Source of the DNA: a virus
Lineage: Duplodnaviria > Caudoviricetes
Reading direction: 5' to 3' (one strand)
DNA: 33,499 bases
IMG/VR virus record: IMGVR_UViG_3300011334_000408
Coordinates: 1-33,499 of that record
Shown here piece by piece: positions 10,174 through 30,568 of this stretch (the first letter of the stretch is position 1; each line of letters starts with the position of its first letter). Below the pieces are notes generated by a model. The model was not told where the DNA came from, did no database searches, and saw only the letters and a program-made list of their open reading frames with translations. Both the position numbers and the translations under genes were made by a program.

Positions 10174-10204
10174 AATACAAAAACAACATACAAACGTTAT
10201 ATAA
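10174..10204 (+). promoter_or_regulatory. putative late promoter 1
   Basis: AATACA-N15-CGTTATATAA; ATG at 10207. Confidence 0.7.
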
Positions 10205-10206
10205 TT

Positions 10207-10884
10207 ATGAAGTTACAAATTACAATACCAACATCATTAAAAGAGATTACTTTGGAACAATACCAAAGATTTGTATCTATTGCACAAAACAACAAAGATG
10301 GCGAATTTCTGCAACAAAAAATGATAGAGATATTTTGCGGTGTTACTTTAAATTTAGTTCCTAATATCCCGTTAAAAGACTTCAACGATATTATTAATTT
10401 ATTGAATAATATGTTTAGCGAACAACATAAATTGCAACCGATTTTTAAATTAGGTAATACTAACTTCGGATTTATTCCAAATTTAGATGAAATTAGTTTA
10501 GGGGAGTTCACAGATTTAGATTCTTATTTGGGTAATTGGGAAAATATGCATAGAGCGATGGCGGTTTTATATCGACCTATAACAGAGAAATTTAAAGATA
10601 AATATTTAATTGAGCAATACAACGGAAGTCATACTTATAGCGATGTAATGAAACATTTATCTATGGATATAGTTTTCGGCGCCAATGTTTTTTTTTACAA
10701 TTTAAGCAACGAATTACTGATTTCTACCCTGAATTATTTGGAGCAGAACAAGGAGGTACAGCACTTGATAGACAATCACAATTTGGAGCAAAATGGGGAT
10801 GGTACTCATCTTTCTATAGTATCGCTCAAGGCGATGTTAGAAGATTTGATGAAGTTTCAAGATTACCACTTACAACCTGTTTAA
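10207..10884 (+). CDS. putative tail assembly chaperone, 0-frame product (225 aa)
   Basis: Start moved from 10114 to 10207 because of the promoter position; T9 slippery run at 10688-10696. Confidence 0.6.
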   Translation: MKLQITIPTSLKEITLEQYQRFVSIAQNNKDGEFLQQKMIEIFCGVTLNLVPNIPLKDFNDIINLLNNMFSEQHKLQPIFKLGNTNFGFIPNLDEISLGEFTDLDSYLGNWENMHRAMAVLYRPITEKFKDKYLIEQYNGSHTYSDVMKHLSMDIVFGANVFFYNLSNELLISTLNYLEQNKEVQHLIDNHNLEQNGDGTHLSIVSLKAMLEDLMKFQDYHLQPV

Positions 10885-17310: not shown

Positions 17311-17341
17311 AAAACACTTTAACAATATAAACGTTATATAA
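17311..17341 (+). promoter_or_regulatory. putative late promoter 2
   Basis: AAAACA-N15-CGTTATATAA; ATG at 17344. Confidence 0.7.
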
Positions 17342-17343
17342 AT

Positions 17344-17910
17344 ATGAAAGTTTTTGAATTAATTTTAAACGAAGAAACAGACGGAGTTGACGCAATTAGT
17401 GTAGTCGATAGACCAGCAACTGAAGAAAATTTTATAGCATTAAAAGAAGAACAAGAATTACATTTAGCGGAAGTAAGCAAAGAACAAAAAATATTAATGG
17501 GTGCTGCTTTAGTTCCAAACAAAATGATTTATAGAAAAAATGGAAAAGATGAGTTTAATATTTTCTTTTCGTCTGAAACTATAAAACAAGCGAGTGAAAA
17601 ATTTTTAATGGATGGCAATCAAAACAACGCTACACTAATGCACGAAAAATCTGTAAAGGATTTATCTGTAGTTGAAAGTTGGATAATTGACAATCCCGAA
17701 ATGGATAAGTCAAAAGAGTACGGATTTAGTTTGCCAAAAGGAACGTGGATGATTTCTATGAAAGTTAATAATCCTGAAATTTGGGATAAAGTTAAAAGCG
17801 GAGAAATTAAAGGATTTTCAATTGAAGGATATTTCGCTGATAAAATGGAGATGCAAAGCGAAAAAGAAATTTTTGAACAACTTAGAAAATTATTAGAAAA
17901 TGTGAAATAA
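17344..17910 (+). CDS. prohead serine protease (XkdF-like)
   Basis: TLMH, GTWMISMKV and VKSGEIKGFSIEG motifs. Confidence 0.8.
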   Translation: MKVFELILNEETDGVDAISVVDRPATEENFIALKEEQELHLAEVSKEQKILMGAALVPNKMIYRKNGKDEFNIFFSSETIKQASEKFLMDGNQNNATLMHEKSVKDLSVVESWIIDNPEMDKSKEYGFSLPKGTWMISMKVNNPEIWDKVKSGEIKGFSIEGYFADKMEMQSEKEIFEQLRKLLENVK

Positions 17911-20265: not shown

Positions 20266-20296
20266 AAAACAAAAACGCTATTAATTCGTTATATAA
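20266..20296 (+). promoter_or_regulatory. putative late promoter 3
   Basis: AAAACA-N15-CGTTATATAA; ATG at 20299. Confidence 0.7.
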
Positions 20297-20298
20297 GT

Positions 20299-20643
20299 AT
20301 GATTATATTAAAAGATAATACTTATACGCAAAATATTAAATTCATTCCAAGAAGTGAGGAAGTTTCACTTATGGTTTTCACAGATGAATTATCGAATGTA
20401 AGTTTTGAAATTAACAATCCTATTTTAGTACGAAATAGTTATTTTTTGCAATTTGAAACAGATTTAGACTTTGAATTTTTAGTTGATGGTCATACATATA
20501 CTTTTGAGTGCTTTGATGCGGATGGAATTACTTTATATCGAGATAAAATTATGTGTACCAATCAAAATATTAAAGATTATACAATTAATAATGGTGATTA
20601 TGTGGCAAATCAAACCATAAACGAATACGTTATTTATGAGTAA
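20299..20643 (+). CDS. hypothetical structural protein
   Basis: 114-aa ORF heading the portal operon. Confidence 0.7.
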   Translation: MIILKDNTYTQNIKFIPRSEEVSLMVFTDELSNVSFEINNPILVRNSYFLQFETDLDFEFLVDGHTYTFECFDADGITLYRDKIMCTNQNIKDYTINNGDYVANQTINEYVIYE

Positions 20644-26736: not shown

Positions 26737-26770
26737 TTTGTTATTAATATCAAAATAAATATTATATTTG
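26737..26770 (+). promoter_or_regulatory. promoter reading into the cassette array (Pc-like)
   Basis: TATATTTG at 26763-26770 and TTTG at 26737-26740; ends 9 nt before the first TAAC. Confidence 0.65.
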
Positions 26771-26779
26771 TAAAAGAAT

Positions 26780-26908
26780 TAACGTTCCCGTGCTTGGCGA
26801 GGTTCAAGGAAAGTAAATCCAGATGCTTTGAGTCAAGACTGAAATTAACAAACACAAACAGAATTTTAAATTAATAACTAAACCTTGAATCTTGCCAAAC
26901 ACGTGTTA
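26780..26908 (+). repeat. attC-like hairpin E1 (129 bp)
   Basis: TAAC-gttcc-CGTGCTTGGCGAGGTTCAAGG...CCTTGAATCTTGCCAAACACG-t-GTTA. Confidence 0.85.
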
Positions 26909-26980
26909 TAAGTAGTTGCGGTTAATTAGTAGGATTTTAAATTGAAACAATAAACAAAAAATAATTAAAACAAAAAAGCG

Positions 26981-27370
26981 ATGGATATTAAAGAATTTAC
27001 ATTTACTGGCTTCATAAAAATTGATTGGAGCGAAGATTTTAAAACTATCAAACTTATTGATGACAAAAAATCAATTGACCTTGTAAAAAAGTTTAGGGCA
27101 ATTTTTGATTTGTTTGAAAGCGAAGTTTCTGTTTCGTATTTCATTTCAAACGATAAAAAGACAGAAGTAGAAATACAAGAAGGCTGGTTAAAACAAATGT
27201 TTGGCGGAATAACTGCTGAATACGAAACAAGTAGCTACAACTACTCATCTTATACTTATGGTACAGATTATGACACTTATTTAAAAATTGGCGGACACGA
27301 TTTGTTTGACGAGTTTTCAGAACTAAACGATAAATGGTGTGTACTTAAAGTAAATGTAAAATGTGCGTAG
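26981..27370 (+). CDS. cassette 1 cargo, hypothetical protein
   Basis: 129-aa ORF within the inverted repeat at 26905-26919/27425-27439. Confidence 0.75.
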   Translation: MDIKEFTFTGFIKIDWSEDFKTIKLIDDKKSIDLVKKFRAIFDLFESEVSVSYFISNDKKTEVEIQEGWLKQMFGGITAEYETSSYNYSSYTYGTDYDTYLKIGGHDLFDEFSELNDKWCVLKVNVKCA

Positions 27371-27435
27371 GCTTTTGTTTTAATTATTTTTTGAAACGAA
27401 ATGTCAATTTGAAAACGGATGGGAGCAATTACTTA

Positions 27436-27506
27436 TAACGTTTTGGTGCTTGACGATGTGGCGGTCTGGAAATAGTACGTTCCGCCATATTGCCAAACAC
27501 TTGTTA
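27436..27506 (+). repeat. attC-like hairpin E2 (71 bp)
   Basis: TAAC-gttttg-GTGCTTGACGATGTGGCGG...CCGCCATATTGCCAAACAC-tt-GTTA. Confidence 0.85.
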
Positions 27507-27542
27507 TAAGCCGTTTATTTTATAAACTTTAAAATTATAATT

Positions 27543-27719
27543 ATGAAATATATATCATTTATTTTAATAACATTATGGGCTCTTTGGATGCTTGGAACAA
27601 ATGGAAATTTAAAACCTTCCGACAATTATTTTTTATGGATTTTAGGTGTTTTATCCATAATGTATTCGGTCATTAACTTGATTATCTTTTATGTAGATAT
27701 TCGTAAAAATGGCTTATAA
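27543..27719 (+). CDS. cassette 2 cargo, 58-aa two-TM membrane protein (not in ORF track)
   Basis: MKYISFILITLWALWMLG...FLWILGVLSIMYSVINLIIFY...; its stop is the TAA of the TAAC core. Confidence 0.7.
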   Translation: MKYISFILITLWALWMLGTNGNLKPSDNYFLWILGVLSIMYSVINLIIFYVDIRKNGL

Positions 27720-27843
27720 CGTTTTGTGGCTTTGCGTTCGTTGGGGATTTCCAGCACTAAAGCCGATTGATAGTACAAATTTTAAATATAGCACAAATGA
27801 TTATAGATAGCACTAAAGCCCCAATGACGCAAAACCACTGTTA
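27717..27843 (+). repeat. attC-like hairpin E3 (127 bp)
   Basis: TAAC-gtttt-GTGGCTTTGCGTTCGTTGGGG...CCCCAATGACGCAAAACCAC-t-GTTA. Confidence 0.85.
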
Positions 27844-28480
27844 TACGCAGCCCTTTTCAGAAGTTTTCAATGATGATTGTATTACGGTTATGAAGAGTTA
27901 TCCTGACAAATTCTTTGACCTTGCAGTAGTTGACCCACCTTATGGGATTGGAGCAAACAAAATGCAACTTGGCAATGGTAAAAGAAAGATTTACAGAGGC
28001 AAAAATGATTGGGATAACTCAATCCCTACTGCTGATTATTGGCAGGAACTTTTCAGAGTATCTAAAAACCAAATTGTGTGGGGTGGCAATTATATGACAG
28101 AACACCTGAAGCCAACTTCATCTTGGTTATTTTGGGATAAGGGAACTGGAGATAATGATTTTGCAGATGGGGAATTGGCTTGGACTTCATTTGGTGGAGC
28201 ATTGCGAAAAATAACCAAGAGTTGGGTTGGTGCAAATGCTAAAGATGGACTTGAACGAATACATCCAACGCAGAAACCCATTTATTTATATGATTGGATT
28301 TTTGACCGATATTGCAAAGAAGGAGATTTGGTTTTAGATACTCATTTGGGGAGTGCCAGCAGTAGGATTTCAGCAGATAAAGCCAAGTTGCGTTTTGTTG
28401 GTTGTGAAATAGATACTAAATATTTTAATGATGGAGAAGCAAGGTTCAAAGATTTTGTTTCACAGATGCGGCTCTTTTAG
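27797..28480 (+). CDS. cassette 3 cargo, N6-adenine/N4-cytosine DNA methyltransferase (beta class)
   Basis: DPPY precedes HPTQKP and motif I LDTHLGSASS; start ATG at 27797 or 27824 lies inside E3. Confidence 0.9.
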   Translation: MIIDSTKAPMTQNHCYTQPFSEVFNDDCITVMKSYPDKFFDLAVVDPPYGIGANKMQLGNGKRKIYRGKNDWDNSIPTADYWQELFRVSKNQIVWGGNYMTEHLKPTSSWLFWDKGTGDNDFADGELAWTSFGGALRKITKSWVGANAKDGLERIHPTQKPIYLYDWIFDRYCKEGDLVLDTHLGSASSRISADKAKLRFVGCEIDTKYFNDGEARFKDFVSQMRLF

Positions 28481-28489
28481 GGTTGCGTA

Positions 28490-28547
28490 TAACGGTTGCG
28501 GGTATGGGCTGGCGGCTTTTTCTGCCGCTTGCTTATACCCGATGTTA
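28490..28547 (+). repeat. attC-like hairpin E4 (58 bp)
   Basis: TAAC-ggttg-CGGGTATGGGCTGGCGGC-tttttct-GCCGCTTGCTTATACCCG-at-GTTA. Confidence 0.85.
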
Positions 28548-28585
28548 CCAGCTGGCACGGATTATTAACAACAAAAGCTAATTAG

Positions 28586-29548
28586 ATGAATGAAACAGTT
28601 TTAAATAATTTTTTGAGGGATGGCAAAAACGGCTTGCCCGAAGAATTTAACGTACTATCATTGTTTGATGGGATGAGTTGCGGGCAAATTGCACTTAATA
28701 ACATTGGATTGAAACCTACAAAGTATTTTGCGGCCGAGATTAAAAAACACGCTATACAATGCACTTTAGATAATTTTCCTGATACAATACAGATTGGAGA
28801 TGTAACGAAAGTAAAAGGCCAAGATTTGCCAAAAATACATTTATTGATAGGTGGAAGCCCTTGTCAAGATTTTAGTAGGGCAAATAGTGTAAGAGATGGT
28901 TTAAAAGGAATGAAATCAATGTTATTTTATGAATACATAAGATTACTTGAGGAAACGAAACCTGATTACTATTTACTTGAAAATGTTATAATGGATGATT
29001 TAGGTTACAATACAATAACCGAATTATTAGGAACAGAACCAGTAAGATTGTGCGGTTCAAAAGTAAGCGGAGCTTTAAGAGATAGATTATTTTGGACTAA
29101 TATCGGGCCTGAAAGTTTTGATTTATTTGGTAATCGTAAAAGTGCAATACCACAACCGAGAGATAAAAAAATAATGTTGAATGATGTTTTAGAATACGGA
29201 TATTCAGATAAGAAAAAACACACTTGCTTAAATACAAGTTGTGGCCGAGATGCAAACCAAAGATATATGCTGCATAGATACGCTACTACTGGAATGACTA
29301 CCATTATTTACACAGATGAAACAATGGATGAAAGCAAGGGTGTAAGGTATTGCACACAAACTGAATTGGAGAAATTGCACAATATACCATTAGGATATAC
29401 GAAAAACTTAAACAAGGCACAAGCTGGCAATTTGATTGGAGATGGTTGGAGTGTTGGAATAGTTGAACATATCTTTTCTTTTTTAAAAGGGGAGGAAAAA
29501 AAATTATTTAAAACTGAACCGAAATGCTTAATCGAAGAACGTCCGTAG
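28586..29548 (+). CDS. cassette 4 cargo, C5-cytosine DNA methyltransferase
   Basis: Motif I LSLFDGMSCG, IV GGSPCQ, VI ENV, VIII RDRLFW, X GDGW. Confidence 0.92.
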   Translation: MNETVLNNFLRDGKNGLPEEFNVLSLFDGMSCGQIALNNIGLKPTKYFAAEIKKHAIQCTLDNFPDTIQIGDVTKVKGQDLPKIHLLIGGSPCQDFSRANSVRDGLKGMKSMLFYEYIRLLEETKPDYYLLENVIMDDLGYNTITELLGTEPVRLCGSKVSGALRDRLFWTNIGPESFDLFGNRKSAIPQPRDKKIMLNDVLEYGYSDKKKHTCLNTSCGRDANQRYMLHRYATTGMTTIIYTDETMDESKGVRYCTQTELEKLHNIPLGYTKNLNKAQAGNLIGDGWSVGIVEHIFSFLKGEEKKLFKTEPKCLIEERP

Positions 29549-29558
29549 TGCTTGCTGG

Positions 29559-29687
29559 TAACATTCCCGTGCTTGGCGAGGTTCAAGGAAAGTAAATCCC
29601 GATGCTTCGAGTCAAGACCAAAATTAACAAATACAAACAGATTTTTAAATTAATAACTAAACCTTGAATCTTGCCAAACACGTGTTA
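29559..29687 (+). repeat. attC-like hairpin E5 (129 bp), near copy of E1
   Basis: Seven substitutions relative to E1 by hand alignment, none in the paired stem. Confidence 0.9.
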
Positions 29688-29719
29688 TAGCTTGTGGCGG
29701 ATTTTTAAAAACGAAAATT

Positions 29720-29941
29720 ATGTCAATAGAAAAAATGGAAATGTTTACAGTTATATGCGATAACTGCAAAACAAGTGCGGATGAAGATACTGATTATTCT
29801 TGTTGGAATGATGAAAGTGCCGCTAAAGATGTTGCAATGGAAGCCGATTACATTTATGAAGACGACAAGCATTATTGTCCTAAATGTTACAGATATAATG
29901 ATGAAGATGAATTGATAATTAACACAGAAAGAACAAAATGA
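29720..29941 (+). CDS. cassette 5 cargo A, acidic Zn-ribbon protein
   Basis: CDNC...HYCPKC. Confidence 0.7.
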   Translation: MSIEKMEMFTVICDNCKTSADEDTDYSCWNDESAAKDVAMEADYIYEDDKHYCPKCYRYNDEDELIINTERTK

Positions 29942-30219
29942 AAACTCTTAAAAAAGTAGAAATAGAACCCGTTTTTGTGGAGTTTGTTCCCGATGTTTTA
30001 GAAGAAAACAAAATCTATATTTCAGAAGAATATAAATGTGCTATTCATAATTGTTTGTGCGGTTGTGGAGAAAAAACAGTAATGCCTTTATATGGCAATG
30101 GATGGAATTTGATTAAAGAAAATAACGATAAAGTTTCATTTACTCCGAGTGTAGGAAACTATAATTTTCCTTGCAAATCACATTACATAATTACGAACAA
30201 TGTTGCAAATTTCGTTTAG
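29938..30219 (+). CDS. cassette 5 cargo B, DUF6527-like Cys/His protein
   Basis: CLCGCG...W...TPSVGN...CKSHY pattern; ATGA-coupled to cargo A. Confidence 0.6.
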   Translation: MKTLKKVEIEPVFVEFVPDVLEENKIYISEEYKCAIHNCLCGCGEKTVMPLYGNGWNLIKENNDKVSFTPSVGNYNFPCKSHYIITNNVANFV

Positions 30220-30289
30220 AACCGAAATCGTAGCCATAAGCTATAACTCCTTTATACTCGTAACTAACCTATTTAAACCTTTATAAACA

Positions 30290-30568
30290 ATGGAAAAAAA
30301 CCTTGACATAATAATTTACTCTAATTTTTTTGAGTTAGAAAATAGATTATTTGCATTTAGAAAAAAGCAATTATTTGACATTACCAATTTACCAACTTTA
30401 GTAAATTTAAAAGATAATAATAATTGTTTAGGATATTGGATTAATAGAAAATGGTTTACTTTGTCAAAATTAAAACCATTGATTAAAAAAGAAGAAAAAA
30501 AAGTTGATGTAAGTAGCTTACAATGGTATCAACAAATAGAATTAGATTGTGTATTTAACTTAAATTAA
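30290..30568 (+). CDS. hypothetical protein
   Basis: 92-aa ORF just after the array end. Confidence 0.7.
   Translation: MEKNLDIIIYSNFFELENRLFAFRKKQLFDITNLPTLVNLKDNNNCLGYWINRKWFTLSKLKPLIKKEEKKVDVSSLQWYQQIELDCVFNLN

Follow-up and report, generated by a model that had tools for sequence, protein, structure and literature searches.

The window analysed here is the virus record IMGVR_UViG_3300011334_000408 over its whole 33,499 bases, a phage genome with a completeness rating of 100%, which carries an array of five gene cassettes (arm to arm at 26905-27439, 27503-27720, 27840-28493, 28544-29562 and 29684-30247). Each unit is composed of a hairpin, an arm starting with GTTA, a gene, and an arm ending in TAAC, where the two arms of a cassette are complementary to each other except for a G opposite T at position 11. 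We conclude, with a probability of roughly three in four, that each cassette has one DNA site, whose two halves are the paired ends and which would be the folded single-stranded substrate of an Xer-like tyrosine recombinase inserting and excising cassettes at AAC in the fashion of an integron, with the T at position 11 (T11) opposite G marking both strand and arm. The comparative evidence establishes that the underlying observation is real, general and functional.

The first-pass annotation of this DNA had listed ten arm sequences, all of which are present, each once and where it had placed them. It had claimed that the sequence of each arm covaries with the opposite end of its own cassette, and this is borne out: at positions 5-10 and 12-15 own ends form Watson-Crick pairs at 48/50 places, against 74/200 in all 20 cross combinations (binomial P ~1e-18). 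The G opposite T at position 11 is found in 5/5 cassettes. The inverted repeat is 14-15 bases long, the pairing in cassette 2 stopping at position 14. The single further mismatch that had been described, a T:T in cassette 4 (at position 10), is present, but is not a one-off, since position 10 is loose in other cassettes as well (T:T in 20 and T:G in 17 of the 153 considered below).

Further loci were gathered by way of the endolysin, the hairpin-end pattern, the neighbouring 92-aa gene, the recombinase and one cultured phage. Sites were detected from TAAC, GTTA and the hairpin stem only, so that the detector is blind to positions 5-15. A detector using bare AAC/GTT was noisy (16 matches in 474 kb of shuffled DNA), and TAAC/GTTA with a score of 10.5 was therefore demanded. 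This gave 220 units outside this phage, which all differ in end sequence, although in descent they are not independent. The ends match at positions 5-9 in 153 of them, and the other 67 were set aside from the position-11 count. Detection from arms only is strand-symmetric, and rows were oriented by open reading frame (ORF) or hairpin.

In the 153 matched cassettes, position 11 reads G:T in 125, C:T in 17, T:T in 10 and A:T in one, with A:C and T:G in none. Counted over all 220 units, G:T occurs 166 times and A:C and T:G again not at all, so that beyond this phage there are neither random mismatches nor parity of G:T with A:C, and the wobble is strand-specific, as had been proposed. The idea of a fixed G:T mark is right for one of its bases and needs amending for the other. 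The T on the TAAC arm is invariant (153/153 matched cassettes, 218/220 of all units) and is almost never Watson-Crick paired. The G is either at position 11 or, past a one-base bulge, at position 12: if the GTTA arm is allowed such a bulge, the pair that closes the outer four is G:T in 145/153, and in the bulged cases (21) the G moves to 12 along with these pairs. G:T leads at position 11 in all six sample groups, with 41/53 in the recombinase-found group, and the first pair inside AAC/GTT is also G:T, in 293/317 sites. Position 15 is paired in 101/153 and position 16 in 25. Among the 218 other units compared, own ends pair more often than the ends of the next cassette, both at position 6 (168 vs 65) and at position 13 (151 vs 64). 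In the next-cassette pairs complementarity is near chance, yet G:T at position 11 persists in 161/218. Arm-only rows that read A:C number 28, of which 19 are the other-strand view of a G:T cassette and nine have a borderline score and no inner G:T pair. The cultured Flavobacterium phage lillamy9-1 (L001:3000-7700) has a nine-unit array on its minus strand with G:T at position 11 in 9/9, which makes it a ready laboratory model. A variant core, GTTG/CAAC, with a compensatory change at position 4, was seen in L441-L454 and in 109/945 arm-only rows. One 14-base pattern occurs in an estimated 1200 viral and 6600 genomic stretches, the genomic list including chance matches in other phyla.

Such complementarity could instead be a by-product of cassette birth or repair, one end being copied from the other, with T11 and the G as separate base contacts of the recombinase. 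We consider this rather improbable. It would fit the T being more invariant than the G, the occurrence of T:T at position 11 (10/153, and in the gp35 cassette of Polaribacter phage P12002L), and a group of homologous methyltransferase genes (L482-L489) whose arms differ yet match themselves; also, the G:T of the next-cassette pairs persists by construction. However, copying alone would yield a Watson-Crick pair at position 11, which is seen in 1/153. It is avoided even where it would be silent: T11 of cassette 2 is the third base of an Asn codon, where a G:C pair would change nothing, and G11 of cassette 3 (27850) is the third base of a Gln codon. The movement of G to position 12 together with the outer four pairs likewise fits a structure rather than two independent bases. 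At the level of sequence, a reading of T11 and G as single bases looks the same as a reading of the wobble. The wobble is probably a mark for strand selection or recognition, as the first-pass annotation had suggested.

Paired stems around genes could also act in RNA, as processing or stability signals in which the wobble would be G:U. The strand carrying the wobble is indeed the coding strand in this phage and in 329/364 ORF-oriented cassettes. However, in the cassettes with the longest ORF on the opposite strand the G:T stays on the hairpin strand in 33/33 (29 bacterial; two viral ones have short ORFs), and reversed units in bacterial contigs keep it there in 32/34. The G:T staying with the hairpin strand when the gene is reversed means that the mark belongs to the site and not to the transcript, and points to DNA in single-stranded form rather than to RNA. 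The junctions in DNA are at AAC, linkage to a recombinase is strict, and a scan of the phage record against Rfam gave no match at gathering score, weak miRNA-type hairpin matches being far under cut-off. RNA as the main role is largely refuted, and we give it very little weight.

Units are exchanged at AAC. A relative of the phage, L003, has the same flanks up to and from TAAC, its homology ending at 26786 on the left and resuming from 30244 on the right, and has two unrelated cassettes inside, both with G:T at position 11. Homologs of cassette 4 (L434, L436, L437, L438) keep hairpin H3 with the gene while the neighbours switch at TAAC, and homologs of cassette 3 (L480, L481) keep hairpin H2 in the same manner. 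Compensatory arm changes between homologous cassettes were found at position 7 in L435 and at positions 6-7 in L479.

Cultured isolates of the Polaribacter phage Freya, for which parts of 7/10 isolates were compared, are 99-100% identical where aligned. Relative to Freya_10, a 307-base unit is missing from Freya_9, an additional one of 472 bases with G:T at position 11 is present in Freya_6, and Freya_5 and Freya_1 are without longer, multi-gene blocks. All four junctions lie on AAC, directly 5′ of the integrase gene. Freya encodes an integrase and may be temperate, so that a host array is a conceivable source of the blocks; in either case the crossover is identical. The words ‘cassette’ and ‘integron’ are absent from passages of the source paper (PMC8776804). 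Contigs L355, L357, L364 and L400 start, at their position 1, exactly at the TAAC of the fixed site described below, and the Freya_1 record (L565) starts at its AAC, as is expected if the upstream content varies in the population.

The arrays are linked to a tyrosine recombinase. In six phage loci its gene lies at the 3′ end of the array. The ATG is 46-52 bases past the last TAAC in 5/6 of these, and the frame in the sixth, L087, likely opens at a nearby non-ATG start. A TAAC-led fixed site is conserved about 46-57 bases 5′ of the start codon, and the Freya junctions map there. A search with the recombinase found 80 loci, some of which overlap those collected earlier; around it there are 133 hairpin sites upstream on its strand, none downstream on the same strand and nine on the other strand. 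A site lies within 2.5 kb of the recombinase in 43/51 loci having enough upstream DNA. The catalytic residues of tyrosine recombinases are R-K-H-R-H-Y, and R133, K158, H218, R221, H244 and Y253 are invariant in 7/7 aligned enzymes. The linked enzyme is closest to XerA (best profile NF040815; PDB matches 4a8e and 5hxy). One host enzyme passes NF040815 (226 vs 220), and three phage enzymes are under the XerA, XerC and XerD cut-offs, scores with the XerC and XerD profiles being 152-193 bits against cut-offs of 335 and 330. XerA, XerC and XerD have the same length and catalytic residues as the linked enzyme. However, Xer acts on a double-stranded dif site, whereas the linked enzyme adjoins hairpin arrays, there is no conserved double-stranded site among the cassettes, and the arms differ.

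All five Bacteroidota genomes examined, which were picked from matches to the pattern, carry a longer recombinase homolog, and in four there are sites beside it. In these four, read along the gene strand, the recombinase comes first, then the fixed site and then the cassettes, and all point the same way. In the ‘reverse’ integrons of Treponema the integrase is likewise co-oriented with the cassettes; the Bacteroidota enzyme, for its part, is without the IntI insertion. The host enzymes (L574-L578) have open frames of about 360-630 aa, and their direction relative to the array is opposite to that of the phage enzymes.

No integrase or transposase was found among the 49 proteins of this phage that were scanned, and a search of the genome with the family recombinase was also empty. 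The slot of the recombinase in other phages is occupied here by the 92-aa gene, which has no Pfam or PHROG match. The idea that it is a remnant of the recombinase was rejected: there is no similarity, and atlas matches are below 0.9 (a weak NUMOD4 look-alike has 0.79). The fixed end of the array next to it resembles the site 5′ of the recombinase gene in other phages. Of 13 relatives, 12 have hairpin sites within 4.5 kb upstream, and 11 have the TAACT of the fixed site in the same column.

We propose the following mechanism. The + strand here would correspond to the ‘bottom’ strand of an integron, with the cut, by analogy with IntI, between A and C. The excised circle would fold with a 15-bp outer arm, giving the enzyme a full double-stranded half-site, and one strand would be exchanged at AAC with the fixed site or with another hairpin site. 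The enzyme would be supplied in trans by the host or a co-infecting phage, and new cassettes may enter at 30244-30289. T11 would be a loosely paired recognition point, similar to the extrahelical bases of attC treated in part of PMC2727003. The arms do lengthen the hairpin stem in the modelled excised circle, as the first-pass annotation had it, and for cassettes 2-5 the modelled junctions favour folding of the + strand by 3.0-4.5 kcal/mol (cassette 1, with a truncated hairpin, was not counted).

Several observations weigh against this mechanism. Within the array each site has an outer match of 4-8 bases only, so that an enzyme needing a 15-bp arm could not excise a cassette by way of the local fold. 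The ends are unmatched in 67/220 units, which we take to be units with a missed internal site, or decayed. One of the five host genomes has no site near the recombinase, the genomes having been chosen for the pattern. Hairpin and gene are not always inherited together: L435 has the gene of cassette 4 with a different hairpin, and L559 has the gene and right arm of cassette 1 but no left arm, and diverges after TAAC. A pooled test of which hairpin accompanies a gene had three homologous pairs, one of them informative. Finally, neither an excised circle nor a cassette-skipping joint was present among the 15 joints, out of 68, that were examined in the contigs of four runs.

A refinement, which we put forward tentatively, is that on single-stranded DNA the own ends of a cassette pair across its gene and form a four-way junction with the two neighbouring hairpins, in which one exchange at the two AAC would free that cassette. 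The private arm sequence would then be an address that pairs the correct two sites. Under this scheme an enzyme could do without the IntI insertion, and it would be understandable that each cassette has arms of its own. When folding was computed as a partition function with DNA parameters, the first nine pairs between own ends reached about 0.7-1.0 on the + strand in 4/5 cassettes, above the local fold. However, the local fold is favoured in cassette 2 (own-end 0.05), the ends on the - strand also pair, at 0.24-1.0 in the same four cassettes, and equilibrium models take no account of single-strand binding protein and cannot be relied on over 200-1000 bases. The blocks absent from Freya_5 and Freya_1 are also multi-gene blocks rather than the single units that such a junction would release.

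The sites were compared with those of integrons. Passages of PMC2727003 and PMC5027507 describe attC sites that are like the phage sites in their AAC/GTT core, in one hairpin per cassette and in complementary ends, and integrons also have a fixed non-hairpin site beside a tyrosine recombinase gene. According to parts of the same papers, attC sites often have a G following AAC (PMC2727003), and the strand that recombines has an excess of G:T pairs (PMC5027507). As control we took the canonical Vibrio integron of MK672802, a small sample whose candidate list includes false sites. Of its 12 candidate intervals seven pair over 9-11 bases, and in those seven positions 12-15 pair at 2/28; three related ends have G:T at position 11 on the top strand, which is the opposite polarity. 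The first-pass annotation had contrasted the arms with a 7-bp R box. Pairing at positions 12-15 does take them beyond it, although the contrast was overstated, since canonical ends already pair over 9-11 bases; the new part is therefore positions 12-15 and the fixed wobble, which bring the phage-type cassettes to 14-15 bases with T11:G. Of the R box (RYYYAAC/GTTRRRY) the AAC/GTT core and the junctions on AAC are present, while the RRRY consensus is not kept, positions 5-7 being variable. Integron sites also have an extrahelical G and T on the L'' arm of the bottom strand; in the present sites a C.A mismatch at stem position 5 is frequent (94/317). The unpaired spacer of attC has 5-6 bases per arm in the part of PMC5027507 concerned, whereas these sites have 2-4 extra bases on the AAC arm: the best offset of the central spacer is 2-4 in 294/317 and 0-1 in seven, against 0 in 10/16 candidates of the canonical control.

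In integrons the hairpin is downstream of the gene, whereas in phages of this kind it is upstream, with genes on the folded strand (this phage and 282/304 oriented viral rows). Bacterial contigs have the classical orientation, with the hairpin downstream of a top-strand gene, in 34/42 oriented rows; mirror readings account for some minority rows. Most cassette genes of hosts lie on the strand opposite to those of phages.

The enzymes differ as well. The integron integrase has the IntI insertion in its catalytic domain, which the linked enzyme lacks: it has 33 residues where IntI4 (2a3v) has 80, about 47 fewer. Four linked enzymes score 140.2-207.5 bits with TIGR02249, the integron integrase profile, whose cut-off is 265. 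Passages of Smyshlyaev 2021 report that the insertion is not fully conserved in an integron-like subgroup, yet call it essential for integron function.

A rival reading is that these are ordinary integron cassettes, that is, clusters of attC lacking an integrase (CALIN), handled by IntI. The AAC/GTT core, one hairpin per gene and the array layout are shared, and Qi et al. 2023 (PMC9892861) class P12002L among the phage CALINs, whose cargo, as here, is DNA methyltransferases, and file its sites as attC. Its site P12002L_attC2 was recombined by IntI1 according to that source; it corresponds to the end of the array, taken from the opposite strand. P12002L_attC1 is a true hairpin site of the same family as those of this phage, and it alone among six sites was without verified IntI1 recombinants in the passages of PMC9892861, which leave arms, wobble and linked enzyme unmentioned. 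Together with the asymmetric central spacer and the missing IntI4 residues, this makes handling by IntI very improbable. It is concluded that the system functions in the manner of an integron, but that three of the features tested, integrase insertion and spacer among them, place it outside the class. Terminal repeats of a transposon or miniature inverted-repeat transposable element were rejected, since the arms are private to each unit, no transposase is among the 49 proteins, and a single AAC is kept at junctions. In the literature searched, which left subscription papers and bioRxiv supplements outside, neither the arms nor the wobble nor the linked enzyme was found described, and no experiment on this enzyme family turned up.

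Cassettes of this type also carry resistance genes. G:T-marked units of a contig from Riemerella anatipestifer contain the genes for Lnu(H) (577.7 vs cut-off 540) and EreD (958 vs 800), at L305:4826-5650 and L305:6912-8138. A DfrA36-like gene, below cut-off, is located in their vicinity. It is conceivable, although we hold it with reserve, that Bacteroidota and their phages have in common another integron-like system, so far undescribed, whose DNA takes over the part of the IntI domain: the private arms of a cassette, 15 bases each, would pair across its gene, and the resulting four-way junction would single out that cassette for excision. The strand would be marked by the wobble-flagged T, and the junction resolved by a plain Xer-type enzyme that phages borrow from the host; the system would supply phages with methyltransferases and hosts with resistance genes such as lnu(H) and ereD. 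Few complete integrons are reported in Bacteroidetes in the part of 10.1101/2022.02.28.482270 that concerns them. Integron finders rely on IntI and canonical attC, and arrays of the new type look common in Bacteroidota. The T11:G mark together with self-matching ends provides a simple rule for finding and delimiting cassettes. Should folded single-stranded sites prove to be handled by a recombinase that has no IntI insertion, the insertion is dispensable for cassette shuffling, and the arms allow a direct test of how this works.

The features of the array are collected in Table 1.

Table 1. Features of the cassette array and its flanks, in window coordinates
Feature	Positions	Strand	Remarks
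TAnnTTTG motif, likely promoter element	26763..26770	+	10 bases 5′ of array; also before array in relative L003
Left boundary TAAC	26780..26783	+	flank 5′ of TAAC is not a cassette end: A instead of T at position 11
Hairpin H0, 121 nt	26784..26904	+	likely part of cassette 1; 91% like H4; stem probability 0.93-1.0 except one mismatch
Cassette 1 left arm	26905..26919	+	G11 at 26915
Cassette 1 gene, 129 aa, function unknown	26981..27370	+	homolog in L559
Cassette 1 right arm	27425..27439	+	T11 at 27429
Hairpin H1, 63 nt	27440..27502	+	
Cassette 2 left arm	27503..27516	+	G11 at 27513
Cassette 2 gene, 58 aa, hydrophobic	27543..27719	+	last codons overlap right arm
Cassette 2 right arm	27707..27720	+	T11 at 27710
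Hairpin H2, 119 nt	27721..27839	+	contains likely methyltransferase start codon (27824)
Cassette 3 left arm	27840..27854	+	within reading frame; G11 at 27850
Cassette 3 gene, N6/N4 DNA methyltransferase (PF01555)	27824..28480	+	218 aa from ATG
Cassette 3 right arm	28479..28493	+	T11 at 28483
Hairpin H3, 50 nt	28494..28543	+	
Cassette 4 left arm	28544..28558	+	T:T at position 10; G11 at 28554
Cassette 4 gene, C5 DNA methyltransferase (PF00145)	28586..29548	+	320 aa
Cassette 4 right arm	29548..29562	+	T11 at 29552
Hairpin H4, 121 nt	29563..29683	+	91% like H0
Cassette 5 left arm	29684..29698	+	G11 at 29694
Cassette 5 genes, 73 aa (unknown) and 93 aa (DUF6527)	29720..30219	+	
Cassette 5 right arm	30233..30247	+	T11 at 30237
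Fixed array end without hairpin, likely attI-like insertion site	30244..30289	+	common to L003 from 30244
92-aa gene in recombinase slot of other phages	30290..30568	+	unrelated to recombinase

Each of the five hairpins stands 5′ of a GTTA arm, and there is no hairpin behind cassette 5. The array sits directly 3′ of the endolysin gene, and the phage proteins also include matches to terminase, portal and primase/helicase. The nearest annotated matches over the array are Flavobacterium phages (54/72 records). In a close relative, the stretch past the endolysin (L002:7550-7760) looks by eye like a split (two-piece) gene for transfer-messenger RNA.

The TAnnTTTG before the array is presumably the Bacteroidota -7 consensus. 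Elsewhere this motif precedes 5/43 leftmost sites, against 9/266 internal sites; as a general rule, a promoter at the left end of arrays is thus weak and was rejected, and a sigma-70 scan was at chance level.

The frame of the cassette 3 methyltransferase opens inside the hairpin and crosses the GTTA arm (27824-27854), so that the site is also coding, and the same is seen in L479-L481, L490 and L491. In the structural region, a 37-base repeat occurs in three copies (10174-10210, 17311-17347 and 20266-20302), with CGTTATATAA directly 5′ of start codons; a late promoter or a translation signal is possible.

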